Shown: one piece after another, positions 9,995-27,906 of the stretch
How the letters are laid out: each line of letters begins with the position of its first letter
Position numbering within the stretch: position 1 is the stretch's first letter
Notes under the pieces: generated by a model
Told to the model about the DNA's origin: nothing
Databases searched by the model: none
Seen by the model: only the letters and a program-made list of their open reading frames with translations
Translations under genes and position numbers: made by a program
Source: Bacilli bacterium
Lineage (GTDB): Bacteria; Bacillota_I; Bacilli_A; RFN20; CAG-449
DNA length: 29,632 bases
Direction: 5' to 3'
Assembly (NCBI GenBank): GCA_051891155.1
Contig: JBJFEV010000082.1
Location: 1 to 29,632 of the forward strand

Positions 9995-10024
9995 AAAATA
10001 AAAACGTCCTTAATCTAAGGACGT
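9995..10024 (-). terminator. T-box attenuator terminator
   Basis: ACGTCCTTA-GAT-TAAGGACGT stem followed by TTTTATTTT. The 5' arm CGTCCTT can alternatively pair with the T-box to form the antiterminator. Confidence 0.9.
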
Positions 10025-10222
10025 AATAATACGCGGTACCACCTTAGTTTCTAGAAACAATCTAGACACCTCGATATTGATAACGGAATTACCCGTCTTA
10101 ACTTACTTTTAGTTCAGTTAAGAAACTAGAAAGTGATTAGTTTTACTTATTCTTTTATTCCTTTTTCACCAAAATAAGGAATTCTCTAAAAAAGAAGTCG
10201 TAGCTTTTGTCTTCCATACGTT
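9995..10222 (-). promoter_or_regulatory. T-box riboswitch (tRNA-Ile sensing, transcriptional attenuation)
   Basis: T-box AAGGTGGTACCGCG at 10045-10032, stem I AGAGA and GGTGAAA elements, candidate specifier ATC at 10137-10135, stem II TCTTAACT/AGTTAAGA, IIA/B CCGTTATC, then terminator. Confidence 0.92.
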
Positions 10223-10234
10223 TTTGACAATACT

Positions 10235-22952: not shown

Positions 22953-24920
22953 TTATAAGCATTTCTTAACTTTATCGACAACGGCATCGACAGTAAAGCC
23001 ATAATTTTCGATGACTTTTGAAGCAGGAGCGGATTTTCCATAAGTATCGATACCCATAACATTTTTACTAAATCTATGCCATCCAAATGTAGAAAGCATT
23101 TCAATAGAAAGACGTTTTTCATATGGAGCACCAAATACTTGTTCAACATATTTTTCACCTTGTTCCAAGAATAATTCAACACAAGGTAAAGAAACTACTC
23201 TTACATCGATTCCTTCTTCCAATAATCTTTCTTGAGCGGAAACCGCTAAAGAGACTTCTGAACCAGTAGCAATAATTGTGAAGTCAGGTTTATTACCTTT
23301 TTCTTTGGAAATTACATATCCACCTTTAGATAAATCTGAAGAAGATGATCCTTCTAGTAAAGGCAATGCTTGACGAGAAAGAATTAAGCAAGTTGGATGT
23401 TTTGTTGATTTTAAAGCGAATTTCCAACCTTCCACAACTTCATTTGCATCACATGGACGATATACATAATTGCCTGGCGTACTTCTTAACATAGCAAGTT
23501 GTTCAATTGGTTGATGAGTTGGTCCATCTTCCCCGACGGCAATGGAATCGTGAGAGAATAAATAGATTGCAGGAAGTTCTTCTAAACATCCAAGTCTCAA
23601 TGTTGGTTTTACATAATCAGAGAATACGCAGAAACATCCAACATATGTTCTAAGTCCTCCATGTAGTAACATACCATTTTGAATTCCAGACATTGCAAGT
23701 TCTCTAATACCAAAGTTAATATTATGACCTGATGGATTAGAAGGAGTATTATCACTTCCTCCAATAATCTTCGTCATAACTGATTTAGCTACATCGGCAG
23801 AACCACCATAAAGATTAAATAAAGCTTTTTGCATTTCATTTAATACTACTTGCGAAGTATTTCTTGTTGAATCTTTAAATCCTTTTTCAAAAGTAATGTT
23901 GACATTTTCTAAATATGAAGAAACATCATTATCTTTAGTAGCCATAATTTTATTGTATTCTTCAGGATACTCATTTTTATAAGCTTCTAAATTTTGTTTC
24001 CATAGTTTTTCTGCTTTTTTTCCACGTTTAATAAATGTTGATTTAAATGTTTGATAAACTTCTTCTGGGATAGTGAATGGAGGATAATTATATCCATATA
24101 CCTCTTTAGCGTGCTTACCATCTTCTTCACCTAAAGGAGCGCCATGAACATTGCATTTTCCTTGGTTATTTGAACCGTATCCAATGATTGTATTAACCAT
24201 AATTAAAGTTGGTTTTTCGCTTGATTTTTTAGCTTTTTTAATAGCATTATTAAGCGCGTTAACATCGTTGCCATCTTTAACTAAAATAGTGTTCCAATTA
24301 GAAGAAGCAAATCTCTTTAAAACATCTTCATTAAATGACATATCTAATGCGCCATCTAAAGTAACGTTATTAGCGTCATAGAACATAATTAATTTATTTA
24401 GTTTATGTAATCCAGCAAAGGAAATTGCCTCTTGTGAAATACCTTCTTGTAAGCAACCATCGCCACATAAACAATATGTATAATGAGAAAATACTCTATC
24501 TCCTTCTTTATACATAGAAGCAAGAATTCTTTCTGCAAGTGCCATACCAACAGCTTGTGCTATACCTTGACCAAGAGGTCCAGCGGAAGCATCGACTCCA
24601 TCAGTAACACCTACTTCTGGATGACCTGGAGTTACAGAATCTAGTTGTCTAAAGTTCTTTAAATCATCCATTGATACTTTATATCCCGCTACATGAAGCA
24701 TAGTATAAAGTAACATAGAAGCATGTCCAGAAGACATCACAAATCGATCTCTATTTATCCATTTTGAATCTTTAGGATTAGCCACTAAATGATTAGTAAA
24801 TAAAGTATAAAGAATTGGGGCAGATCCTAAAGCCATACCTGGATGGCCTGATTTTGCCTTGTTGATACCATCGATTATTGTTGATCTAATCGCAGCAATA
24901 CATAATTGATCATTTCTCAT
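22953..24920 (-). CDS. tkt: Transketolase
   Basis: SGHPG, RDRFVMSSGH, GHPE, GPLGQG, GDGCLQEG (TPP motif) and HDSIAVGEDGPTHQPIEQ. True start ATG at 24920 after AGAGGAGAG; the track extension to 24989 lies within the ncRNA. Confidence 0.98.
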   Translation of the reverse strand: MRNDQLCIAAIRSTIIDGINKAKSGHPGMALGSAPILYTLFTNHLVANPKDSKWINRDRFVMSSGHASMLLYTMLHVAGYKVSMDDLKNFRQLDSVTPGHPEVGVTDGVDASAGPLGQGIAQAVGMALAERILASMYKEGDRVFSHYTYCLCGDGCLQEGISQEAISFAGLHKLNKLIMFYDANNVTLDGALDMSFNEDVLKRFASSNWNTILVKDGNDVNALNNAIKKAKKSSEKPTLIMVNTIIGYGSNNQGKCNVHGAPLGEEDGKHAKEVYGYNYPPFTIPEEVYQTFKSTFIKRGKKAEKLWKQNLEAYKNEYPEEYNKIMATKDNDVSSYLENVNITFEKGFKDSTRNTSQVVLNEMQKALFNLYGGSADVAKSVMTKIIGGSDNTPSNPSGHNINFGIRELAMSGIQNGMLLHGGLRTYVGCFCVFSDYVKPTLRLGCLEELPAIYLFSHDSIAVGEDGPTHQPIEQLAMLRSTPGNYVYRPCDANEVVEGWKFALKSTKHPTCLILSRQALPLLEGSSSSDLSKGGYVISKEKGNKPDFTIIATGSEVSLAVSAQERLLEEGIDVRVVSLPCVELFLEQGEKYVEQVFGAPYEKRLSIEMLSTFGWHRFSKNVMGIDTYGKSAPASKVIENYGFTVDAVVDKVKKCL

Positions 24921-24947
24921 GAAATACTCTCCTCTTACATTATAAAA

Positions 24948-25121
24948 ATCTAGAAGGCGTCGGAATTCCTGGGTTCTCCAGGGGGGCATCTTTTCTCTAC
25001 TTCTGGATTCCGAACTTAGATGAATAATAAATTAATTTATTAGACGAACGGCCTTCAACTCCATAGAGATGAATAAGATTCCCTATTACAAAATGTAGGA
25101 AACGCATATAACCTTCTAGAC
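24948..25121 (-). ncRNA. ssrS: 6S RNA (SsrS)-like RNA, about 173 nt
   Basis: Terminal stem TCTAGAAGG/CCTTCTAGA continued by TTCCT/AGGAA; 13x13-nt central bubble (ACATTTTGTAATA / CCCTGGAGAACCC); apical stem GGGAATCTT/AAGATGCCC then TCTCTAT/GTAGAGA; own promoter upstream. Confidence 0.8.
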
Positions 25122-25127
25122 ACCTAT

Positions 25128-25156
25128 ATTTTAGCACCTATATATCAATTTATCAA
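25128..25156 (-). promoter_or_regulatory. Sigma-A promoter of the 6S-like RNA
   Basis: TTGATA-17 nt-TAAAAT with a TGn extension; predicted +1 near G25121, the first base of the terminal stem. Confidence 0.75.
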
Positions 25157-25180
25157 GATAGTAACATTGAGTGAAAATGT

Positions 25181-25208
25181 AAAAAAAATCCAAAGCATTA
25201 GCTTTGGA
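25181..25208 (-). terminator. Intrinsic terminator of the SipW operon
   Basis: TCCAAAGC-TAAT-GCTTTGGA followed by T8; the TAA stop of the 902-aa gene lies in the loop. Confidence 0.85.
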
Positions 25209-27906
25209 CATATAATATTGCACTTGAAGTTATTTTATAAAAATATGAAATATCTCCATAAATTAAGTTTTCATCTCCTAAAGCGACAAATGCTTCATTG
25301 GATGATTTACTCAAATCCACTCTTATGACAGGCTTCTTAAGTACATAATCGCATAAATAAATAGTCGCGTTACCATATTTAGCTTTTAATGCTTCATACA
25401 TTGATAAAGATGAACATGGTGATCCGCTCAATATTGAAGAATCACTTGTACAAATATCTCCTCCACATAAATAATCACCAATTCCATATTTATTAGCCCA
25501 TAATAAATGTTCACCTAAATTATAATGATCAATAAAATATCCATTATCACCATCATAATCTTTAACTACAGTGCCTAAATCCATATATTCATCGATAATT
25601 TTTATGAATTTGTTTGTATAACGATATGCATATATATCATAATATTCGGTATATGTATTATACGATTCAAATGAATTACCATTCATTCGTCTAACAATCA
25701 ATAAATCATATAAGCCTTTTCCACGAATCTGATCAAATGAGAAGGTTAAAACACCATTTTTCAATGAATAAGTCAATCCATCTAATTTTTTAAACACTTT
25801 TCCACCACTAGAAAATGCAGAAGGAACATATACTCCACCTGTTGGCGAAGTATTATACCAAGCGGAAGAATTTTCTGTATGATGAGAGGCAATTTGGAAA
25901 TTTAAACTTCTAGTATTAGAGAAGTTAGCGTTTCTATAAATATAAGTATTGTTAGTGATAACATCTCCAAGTAATGATGTATCTCCACCTTCTACTCCAC
26001 CAATATTACTTTCACTTATTGAATAAGCGTTTTCAATTTTTTGAAATGTTCTTGTGGTAGTGTAATTATCTTCATAATAGCTATTGTAATATGAAGAATA
26101 ATCTTCTCCAGTAAAATAAGAGTCATCATAGTTATCGCTATATAAATGATTATCACTATCAATTTCATATAGAATCACCATGTATTTTTTATATTTAGGA
26201 TCAGAAGTACTATTATATGACTTTGTAACATATACTTGGTTATTGTGAGATTCATCTGTAGATGATCCTAAGTTTACCCCATTAGTATTTGCACCAGTAT
26301 AATGAGCATCAGTTTGATTTCCCTTATATAGTTCTAAACCAACTTTGGAGAAATCATATTGTAAGTCCTTTTTATAAAGTGAAGGAAAATTCTCTTTATC
26401 ATTGGTAATTCTTTTTATAAAATCTTTTATTCGTGCACTTTGATCAGTATCTACACTTATACTTGAATCAACAATACTATTTGCATCAATTGACATACTA
26501 GAATTAGCTACAAACATATATATGTTTATATATTTATTTGAATAATCATAGTCTTCTTTTTTCTTAATTTCAAAAGCTTTACGATTAAAAGTATATGTAT
26601 ACGCCAAGGAAGAATCTAGTTGTAATGGATCTAATCTTACATCTAAATAATCAAAGTCAGTTTCTAAACATAATTGTCTTCCTACTGCATAATGAAGATA
26701 ACTATTTCCATTATACAAATCAATATCGCCTTCTTTAGTATAATGCTCATTAGAATAAGTAAATACGCGAGAAGCATCACGTATAATATTAGAGCCTTTC
26801 CATCCTAAAAAGAAGACACCATCTCTTCCTTTGATTTCTGCAAGAGTTTGCGAATACCCTCCGTTTGATATTGGATCAATCACAGCATCTTCACTGATAA
26901 AGAAACGAGGAAATATTCTAATTACATTGCTATCATCATTTTCGGGTTTAATTTTATTTAAATATTTTGATAAATCAGATGAAAATTCAAAACATGGTCC
27001 CATATCTTTTGGATTAGAACCTTCTTGGCGAGTAGTATAAGAACATGATATCTTATATCCACCACTTCCATCACTTACACTATTTGCTACATACCATTCA
27101 TAGTTTTTATTATCCTCAAAATAACCGGAATCTTCATAAATAGCGGCGATTGGATAATCGATCATACTATAAAACTTATTTGTGGACAAAGAATATTTAA
27201 CTTCAATTCGTAAAGGAAGGTATCTTCTTTCTTTATAACCTGTTTGAGGTGTTAATGAAAAAGAAGGAGTATTATCACTACCATATACCGTATAGCCAGA
27301 AGAATCTACTTGTACAAAAGTATCATATTCTGCCCATCCTCCATACCTATCATTGCAATAGTGTTGAATGGAAGAAGTTCTGTAATTAGCCGCGCCATTA
27401 TCATTTCCAGATACGTATTGAGAATAAGCGGTTTGTGCCGCTCTTGTTCGATTTTCATTTGGATAATCAGTTATATTACTAATAAAACTAGCATAAGTAC
27501 TGCATCCATTATATCCTTTTGCCACTCCTCCATTTTTTACTAATGGATAAGAAGGATTATTGGGATCTTTTAATGGTTCACCTAATAAATCATCTTCTTC
27601 TATTTCAAAATATCCGAATGCTTCTTCAGGTTTTGGAGAATTGTTTGGGTCAGATAAATAATCGCTATAAATATCAATATATGCCATTGAAGGAAAGAAA
27701 TATAAAACATAAGTTTCATCTTCATCACCTTCAAATGTATAATTTTCATATATTTTATTTACTTCCGCTTTAGTGGTTATATCCACATTATCTTTAGAAG
27801 TATTAGAGACAGGAAAAAACCACATAGAAAAGCCTGTACTAGTAGCTAGTACAGCAAAAGTTAATAATATAATAAGTGAATATTTTAACTTTCTTAACTT
27901 ATACAT
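25198..27906 (-). CDS. Large exported protein (902 aa), putative SipW-processed adhesin or fibre-associated subunit
   Basis: Basic N-region, hydrophobic core, then GFSMWFF. Y/S/N/D-rich beta-like body with no C-terminal TM or LPxTG anchor. AGGAG RBS overlaps the upstream TAG. Confidence 0.8.
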   Translation of the reverse strand: MYKLRKLKYSLIILLTFAVLATSTGFSMWFFPVSNTSKDNVDITTKAEVNKIYENYTFEGDEDETYVLYFFPSMAYIDIYSDYLSDPNNSPKPEEAFGYFEIEEDDLLGEPLKDPNNPSYPLVKNGGVAKGYNGCSTYASFISNITDYPNENRTRAAQTAYSQYVSGNDNGAANYRTSSIQHYCNDRYGGWAEYDTFVQVDSSGYTVYGSDNTPSFSLTPQTGYKERRYLPLRIEVKYSLSTNKFYSMIDYPIAAIYEDSGYFEDNKNYEWYVANSVSDGSGGYKISCSYTTRQEGSNPKDMGPCFEFSSDLSKYLNKIKPENDDSNVIRIFPRFFISEDAVIDPISNGGYSQTLAEIKGRDGVFFLGWKGSNIIRDASRVFTYSNEHYTKEGDIDLYNGNSYLHYAVGRQLCLETDFDYLDVRLDPLQLDSSLAYTYTFNRKAFEIKKKEDYDYSNKYINIYMFVANSSMSIDANSIVDSSISVDTDQSARIKDFIKRITNDKENFPSLYKKDLQYDFSKVGLELYKGNQTDAHYTGANTNGVNLGSSTDESHNNQVYVTKSYNSTSDPKYKKYMVILYEIDSDNHLYSDNYDDSYFTGEDYSSYYNSYYEDNYTTTRTFQKIENAYSISESNIGGVEGGDTSLLGDVITNNTYIYRNANFSNTRSLNFQIASHHTENSSAWYNTSPTGGVYVPSAFSSGGKVFKKLDGLTYSLKNGVLTFSFDQIRGKGLYDLLIVRRMNGNSFESYNTYTEYYDIYAYRYTNKFIKIIDEYMDLGTVVKDYDGDNGYFIDHYNLGEHLLWANKYGIGDYLCGGDICTSDSSILSGSPCSSLSMYEALKAKYGNATIYLCDYVLKKPVIRVDLSKSSNEAFVALGDENLIYGDISYFYKITSSAILYVQS

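Follow-up and report, generated by a model that had tools for sequence, protein, structure and literature searches.

The locus and its promoter

The window analysed here, a 29,632-nt stretch of DNA from a Bacilli bacterium, carries on its minus strand the transketolase gene tkt (22953-24920, 655 aa) and, upstream of it, a 902-aa open reading frame of a putative SipW-associated operon (25198-27906), for which an NCBIfam search gave no match at E <= 0.001. In the 277-nt intergenic gap between the two, and on the same strand, lies a gene of ~174 nt (24948-25121) that we read as the 6S RNA gene (ssrS). It runs from a predicted +1 at G25121 to the end of its closing stem, and the covariance-model match extends over 24943-25125. 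The upstream limit of its transcription unit is set by the intrinsic terminator of the 902-aa gene (25209-25188, minus strand), a 9-bp stem followed by a T-run that stands just ahead of the 6S promoter. In many relatives (L011:1138-1261, L018:1197-1317 and about ten other loci) the upstream neighbour is a divergently oriented L20 leader, that of the infC-rpmI-rplT operon, 150-250 nt away from the 6S gene. The 902-aa gene replaces this neighbour in the window, which is a rearrangement or insertion beside the 6S promoter. Elsewhere in the window, a T-box leader is found at 10014-10227 (minus strand, 103.8 bits).

The sigma-A-type promoter of the 6S gene (25156-25128, minus strand), assigned from a promoter scan and from its placement in orthologues, consists of a -35 element TTGATA (25156-25151), a 17-nt spacer and an extended -10 element TGcTAAAAT (25136-25128). 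It ranks best among the sites of the region, with 10 of 12 matches plus the TG; promoter-like sites as a class are not enriched there (6 found, 5.2 expected). A TTGATA-17-TGnTAAAAT promoter with a predicted +1 had already been proposed from the letters of the DNA, and both are present on the minus strand. The closing stem opens with the predicted +1, G25121. In 28 of 32 orthologues, exactly 6 nt separate the end of the extended -10 from the first paired base. Given this spacing, the primary 6S transcript should begin at the foot of the closing stem. Hence, 5' trimming of the RNA need not be assumed here; the start of the transcript seems to coincide with the first paired base.

Downstream, tkt has a Shine-Dalgarno sequence AGAGGAGAG (24935-24927) and an ATG at 24920, 27 nt past the closing stem. 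Its product matches TIGR00232 with 845.6 bits over residues 7-654 of the 655-aa form. The longest open reading frame is a 678-aa form that begins at a spurious in-frame ATG (gAUGccc, 24989-24987, minus strand) inside the apical helix of the RNA; an exact look-up found the 655-aa protein in public collections and the 678-aa form absent. The sequence-only reading had described the RNA as hidden under a false N-terminal extension of tkt, which does not hold for the public annotation: the extension belongs to the longest open reading frame only, and the public form starts at 24920. A protein search with tkt returned mainly distant transketolases of Bacteroidota and Spirochaetota, and the nearest labelled sequences were from Erysipelotrichaceae bacterium SUG531 (94%) and Bacilli bacterium RGIG3315 (63%).

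A rod with two predicted conformers

The RNA folds into a rod that is closed by a stem of 10 pairs, including a terminal G-U, formed by GUCUAGAAGG (25121-25112) and CCUUCUAGAU (24957-24948); the minimum-free-energy fold adds an eleventh pair. Further in, UUCCU (25101-25097) pairs with AGGAA (24970-24966) as an inner helix. Next to it lie the two 13-nt strands of the central bubble, ACAUUUUGUAAUA on the 5' side (25096-25084, together with UUCCU 25101-25084) and CCCUGGAGAACCC on the 3' side (24983-24971, together with AGGAA 24983-24966). The apical arm (25083-24984) is built from GGGAAUCUU/AAGAUGCCC, UCUCUAU/GUAGAGA and UGGA/UCCA, with a conserved internal loop GUUGAAGGC / GGAAUCC and a variable AU-rich tip. 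Directly 3' of the closing stem follows a U-rich tract, UUUUUAUAAU (24948-24939), a possible weak termination or 3'-end signal. Such a tract, with at least 4 U in the first 8 nt past the stem, is present in 30 of 32 orthologues, and a canonical terminator scan on the 6S strand between the RNA and tkt found none.

The minimum-free-energy fold (-44.1 kcal/mol, z = -2.3) yields the closing stem and the apical arm; as 3 of 200 shuffled sequences fold equally well, the single-sequence fold is only modestly above chance and is weak evidence alone. In this fold the 3' bubble strand folds separately, pairing CCUGG (24982-24978) with CCAGG (24972-24968). This hairpin competes with UUCCU/AGGAA, and the clean 13x13 bubble is therefore one of two conformers. 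When the 3' segments of the 32 orthologues are folded one by one, nearly all are predicted to form an equivalent hairpin, built from different sequences (CCUGG/CCAGG, CCCUGU/ACAGGG, CCUUA/UAAGG, CCCUAUA/UAUAGGG and AAGGAU/AUCCUU), and its 3' arm or loop holds the GGAA or GGGA that alternatively pairs with UUCC. Of the rod drawn on the minus strand by the sequence-only reading, the closing stem, the UUCCU/AGGAA helix and the apical helices thus stand, and the symmetrical open bubble describes one conformer only.

The structure is beyond chance because it is conserved and covaries in relatives. Among 60 related genomes searched at the DNA level, 27 further ones, from the same family and two neighbouring families, keep the region with 69-85% identity over the aligned parts, which is high for a spacer in a genome of 31% G+C. 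Seven sequences showed compensatory changes at 18 of 36 pairs; when 28 orthologues were aligned with MAFFT, blind to structure, 23 of the 28 predicted pairs showed them. In a model-fitted alignment of 32 orthologues with 36 pairs in five helices, 29 pairs changed on both sides, 93.7% of cells were standard pairs versus 41-52% when the partner was slid by 1-3 columns, and the covariation score was 0.544 against a shuffled mean of 0.223, a value that none of 500 shuffles attained being the observed one. The 32-sequence alignment leans toward the model; the same picture emerges from the MAFFT alignment, which is independent of it, and from the slid controls. Alignment A4 was used in place of A2, into which the near-symmetrical rod had drawn weak reverse-strand matches. 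The covariation check proposed with the original prediction thus came out in its favour.

Support differs among the helices. The closing stem has compensatory changes at 9 of its 10 pairs and 99% of cells paired, with orthologous variants such as GUCUAGAAGG/CCUUCUAGAU, GUCCGGAGAG/CUUUCCGGAU and GUCUAAUAGA/UCUAUUAGGC. The apical arm has compensatory pairs throughout (helix 3, 7/9; helix 4, 6/7; helix 5, 5/5). The inner helix UUCC/GGAA is the weakest, with 89% of cells paired and two compensatory pairs, and RNAalifold on the MAFFT alignment A3, in which the variable 3' bubble strand is misaligned, left it unrecovered. On the 5' side of the bubble, C27, C28, A30, C31 and A32 are invariant in 28 sequences, as are UUCC and the A-C-A that follows it (25096-25094), and the opposite strand varies.

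Membership of the 6S family and copy number

An Infernal search of region 24800-25300 with the Rfam 6S model RF00013, run at an E-value threshold, gave a full-length match (model positions 1-187) at 24943-25125 on the minus strand, with 36 bits and an E-value of 8.8e-6 that applies to 501 nt and by our scaling becomes ~5e-4 for the whole window. The score stands below the RF00013 gathering score of 46.4 bits, which is an operational annotation rule and not a biological property. At gathering thresholds, an Rfam search of the whole window returned the T-box alone (10014-10227) and no match at the 6S locus. We attribute the sub-threshold score to the apical tip, which has 34 nt where the Rfam consensus has 8, and to the absence of part of the segment leading from the stem to the bubble. 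The blocks that do match the consensus are GGGA..., UGGaGUuGAAGGCC, GGAAUCC.gAA and GCCCcCCUGGA. Other Rfam families within 24800-25300 reached only E-values of 0.5 or worse, and lay elsewhere or on the other strand. A riboswitch or leader family was considered as an identity for the RNA and rejected, as no Rfam family other than RF00013 scored better than 0.5.

Relatives score higher with the same model. An Rfam scan of 20 relatives' loci gave RF00013 matches at the homologous place, four of them above the gathering score (L011, 51.5 bits; L018, 49.4; L016, 48.1; L014, 46.7) and others at 35-46 bits. Searched genome-wide in five relatives, it matched at the orthologous locus alone in each of the four same-genus genomes, and gave no match in the fifth, which belongs to another genus; genome-wide E-values of the orthologues range from 1e-7 to 1e-9 (43-51.5 bits). 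The 6S identity proposed from the sequence alone is thus borne out by a full-length RF00013 match in the recommended Infernal check, by covariation and by orthologues above the gathering score, and the better riboswitch fit that had been named as the observation to speak against it did not appear among the Rfam families. The accompanying remark that divergent copies are easily missed by annotation applies to this very locus, which scores 10 bits under the cut-off.

A covariance model built from seven sequences (R1) scores 152 bits at the 6S locus, its sole match in the window's genome (74% complete). Across the order it gives one match per genome in 67 of 151 genomes, and within the same family in 27 of 30. 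A second model (R2), built from 32 sequences of this clade only, matches in 79 of 151 genomes sampled across the class. When 20 of the R2 loci were scanned with Rfam at gathering thresholds, 14 carried RF00013 at the R2 positions, with 47-103 bits. The RNA of this clade and accepted 6S RNAs recognize each other reciprocally, and we therefore file it as a 6S RNA. It is a diverged member of a well-known family, not a new kind of RNA.

Two side observations concern copy number and decay. Tandem 6S arrays occur in other families of the Bacilli, with four copies in ~1.6 kb at L146 (G204:C1:982846-984415), three at L159 and two each at L153, L157 and L151; all of these copies exceed the Rfam cut-off (48-103 bits). 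In the closest relative, the copy at L002:1295-1694 (G014:C65) looks degenerate: changes in its closing stem are uncompensated, the 3'-bubble hairpin is lost, the score with R1 is 70 bits, the lowest but one, and the tkt behind it matches residues 98-175 only. The locus may be decaying, or its 2.9-kb contig may carry an assembly artefact.

Linkage to tkt, proposed function and known systems

The sequence-only reading did not recognize the tkt neighbourhood as a setting for 6S RNA. It is no oddity of this genome, and the position is conserved for 6S in the whole clade: tkt directly follows the RNA in 27 of 27 relatives' loci with an intact tkt start, and the arrangement recurs at four loci from other families of the order and in 4 of 4 genomes of one family outside it. 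Loci fetched from the remaining families of the class had no tkt beside 6S. Members of the window's family typically have 20-35 nt between stem and ATG, and a promoter scan between the 6S RNA and the tkt ATG found none. A TATAAT at 24944-24939 was considered as a tkt promoter and rejected, since no usable -35 accompanies it, 19 nt separate it from the ATG, and relatives do not conserve it. In L050, L051, L058 and L059, from other families of the order, the gap between the RNA and tkt is 50-75 nt and by eye holds extended -10-like promoters of the TGATATAAT or TGCTATAAT type. These wider gaps with apparent promoters argue for an independent RNA gene that is linked to tkt by position. It looks as if 6S and tkt share a promoter in some lineages only, and tkt in the window's family probably depends on read-through from the 6S promoter. 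A literature search for synteny of 6S and transketolase returned nothing relevant.

Contigs of a close strain, 90-99% alike, were present in pig-gut metatranscriptomes from three runs of two studies. The contigs, with full lengths of 283, 351 and 464 nt, span 24838-25118, 24757-25106 and 24645-25106, ending at 25118, 25106 and 25106, that is, 3-15 nt inside the predicted 6S +1, and the metatranscriptome contigs give no coverage of 25124-25500, the side of the upstream gene. These are low-depth assemblies (word depth 2.8-7.6) of a related strain, not reads, and they give no molecule sizes. Every one of them bridges the 6S-tkt junction, with the proviso that RNA libraries may hold DNA and that two genes on one contig need not share a transcript. 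Over the RNA, the longest contig differs from the window by 3 substitutions and a 1-nt deletion in 164 nt; over tkt, it has 25 substitutions in 276 nt, which are mostly spaced in threes. Among the changes in the RNA, G25000 to A replaces a U-G pair by U-A, and C24983 to A restores the clade consensus GCCCACCUGG.

Taking together homology, covarying structure, one copy per genome, promoter placement, transcript contigs and synteny, we put the probability that the RNA before tkt is this genome's single 6S RNA gene (ssrS), with its own extended -10 sigma-A promoter, at roughly 92%. An alternative would be that the element acts mainly in cis as a leader or attenuator of tkt, possibly derived from 6S, with its alternative 3' structures and its stem and U-tract controlling read-through and no RNA acting in trans. 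Its place 27 nt ahead of the tkt ATG with neither a tkt promoter nor a canonical terminator between, the adjacency to tkt in all 27 comparable loci, the RNA contigs across the junction and the conservation of two mutually exclusive structures (UUCCU/AGGAA and CCUGG/CCAGG) would all suit such a leader. However, 6S is the only family that matches, to the exclusion of riboswitches and leaders, and in L050, L051, L058 and L059 the RNA stands outside the tkt leader, separated from tkt by the wider gap with its apparent promoters. These genomes would otherwise be without any 6S RNA, and the same model recovers Rfam-certified 6S RNAs away from tkt. A hairpin of this alternative kind is already known from 6S RNAs (PMC8414754). 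We consider a role mainly in cis improbable.

The low Rfam score could also mark a decaying, non-functional relic of 6S RNA, as 36 bits compare with 43-51 bits in same-genus relatives and the copy of the closest relative (L002), in which the closing stem has unpaired changes, the 3' hairpin is gone and tkt is truncated, appears degenerate. The window's copy, however, retains all of its helices, every invariant position and a promoter with 10 of 12 matches and the TG; the co-occurring strain differs by only 3 positions and one indel in 164 nt, with the change of G25000 to A keeping its pair, and the deficit in score stems from the longer apical tip and the shorter stem-to-bubble region, which makes decay very improbable. 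Hardly credible is a chance fold in an AT-rich spacer, or a translated N-terminus of tkt, for which the weak single-sequence z-score and the start of the longest open reading frame at 24989, inside the region, might speak: covariation and conservation across an order rule out chance, and the transketolase profile begins at residue 7 of the 655-aa form, which is the public one.

As a 6S RNA, the ~174-nt transcript would fold into the rod of closing stem, short inner helix, large central bubble and long apical arm, and by homology would occupy the active-site cleft of sigma-A RNA polymerase, mimicking open promoter DNA. Polymerase would be sequestered in this way as growth slows. During outgrowth, the 5' bubble strand may serve the enzyme as the template of a short product RNA, predicted to read 5'-GUAGGAAACGC... 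(start 5'-GUAGGAAAC) and to begin opposite C25095. The invariant A-C-A at 25096-25094 is a candidate for the start site, with C25095 as the template and A25094 as the flanking adenine. The product RNA would then unzip UUCCU/AGGAA, allowing the 3' strand to fold into CCUGG/CCAGG and the enzyme to be released. In described 6S RNAs, a conserved adenine adjoins the product-RNA start and a conserved GG lies near product positions 4-6, and in lactic acid bacteria and in Bacillus subtilis 6S-1 a hairpin opposite the 5' bulge has been linked to polymerase release after product-RNA synthesis (PMC8414754).

At the 3' end, the closing stem and the U-tract probably stop or pause part of transcription, and the rest would read into tkt, since the spacer in the window's family has no room for a tkt promoter. 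A further-reaching and more doubtful proposal, which we offer tentatively, is that 6S and tkt form one transcription unit with a promoterless tkt, in which the rod itself is the control element, its closing stem and U-tract acting as a leaky terminator with a ~150-nt 'loop' that sets the ratio of free 6S RNA to tkt mRNA. Extended -10 promoters are reported, from work in E. coli, to be sensitive to 6S RNA. Because the shared promoter is of this type, both 6S synthesis and pentose-phosphate capacity might in such a unit come under feedback from the RNA.

The practical result is a correction of annotation: an Rfam scan that relies on the cut-off alone misses a universal regulator of RNA polymerase in this genome, and several further genomes of the order, from uncultured gut and rumen Bacilli, share the problem. 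The clade-specific alignment and models recover 6S RNA in the 67 of 151 genomes of the order. Throughout the order, and in one family beyond it, the gene has a fixed place directly upstream of tkt, which differs from its rarA-uspA setting in lactic acid bacteria. In the window's family, where 6S and tkt appear to share one promoter, the locus offers a natural system for the termination of 6S RNA and for the balance of its output against that of a metabolic gene.

A 6S gene ahead of a metabolic gene has a counterpart in Escherichia coli, in which ssrS lies immediately upstream of ygfA (fau), the gene for 5-formyltetrahydrofolate cyclo-ligase, apparently co-transcribed with it and with no strong terminator between them. 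The E. coli 6S RNA is cut from longer precursors at its 5' end. Here, the metabolic gene is that of transketolase, and the promoter stands at the base of the stem. The Ms1 RNA of Actinobacteria is likewise rod-like and binds core RNA polymerase; it is longer (PMC9130861). Ms1 is unmatched by RF00013, whereas the RNA described here matches RF00013 and belongs to the Bacilli.

The closest comparison is with 6S/SsrS RNA as described by RF00013 and in B. subtilis 6S-1 (bsrA) and Lactobacillales (PMC8414754). The RNA has the same size (~175-185 nt) and the same rod with closing stem, large central bubble and apical arm, and the Rfam consensus aligns with both its conserved 3' shoulder, GCCCaCCUGG, and its apical loop, GUUGAAGGC / GGAAUCC. 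It likewise has a hairpin opposite the 5' bubble strand (PMC8414754), a conserved A flanking a C in the 5' bubble where the product RNA would start, a sigma-A promoter and one copy per genome. The predicted product RNA would carry GG at positions 4/5, like the Gram-negative examples in PMC8414754, whereas in lactic acid bacteria GG is at 5/6. In lactic acid bacteria the gene lies between rarA and uspA, and here directly upstream of tkt. In contrast to described Firmicutes 6S genes, it has no separate rho-independent terminator, the U-tract adjoining the closing stem itself, and its promoter is placed at the base of that stem.
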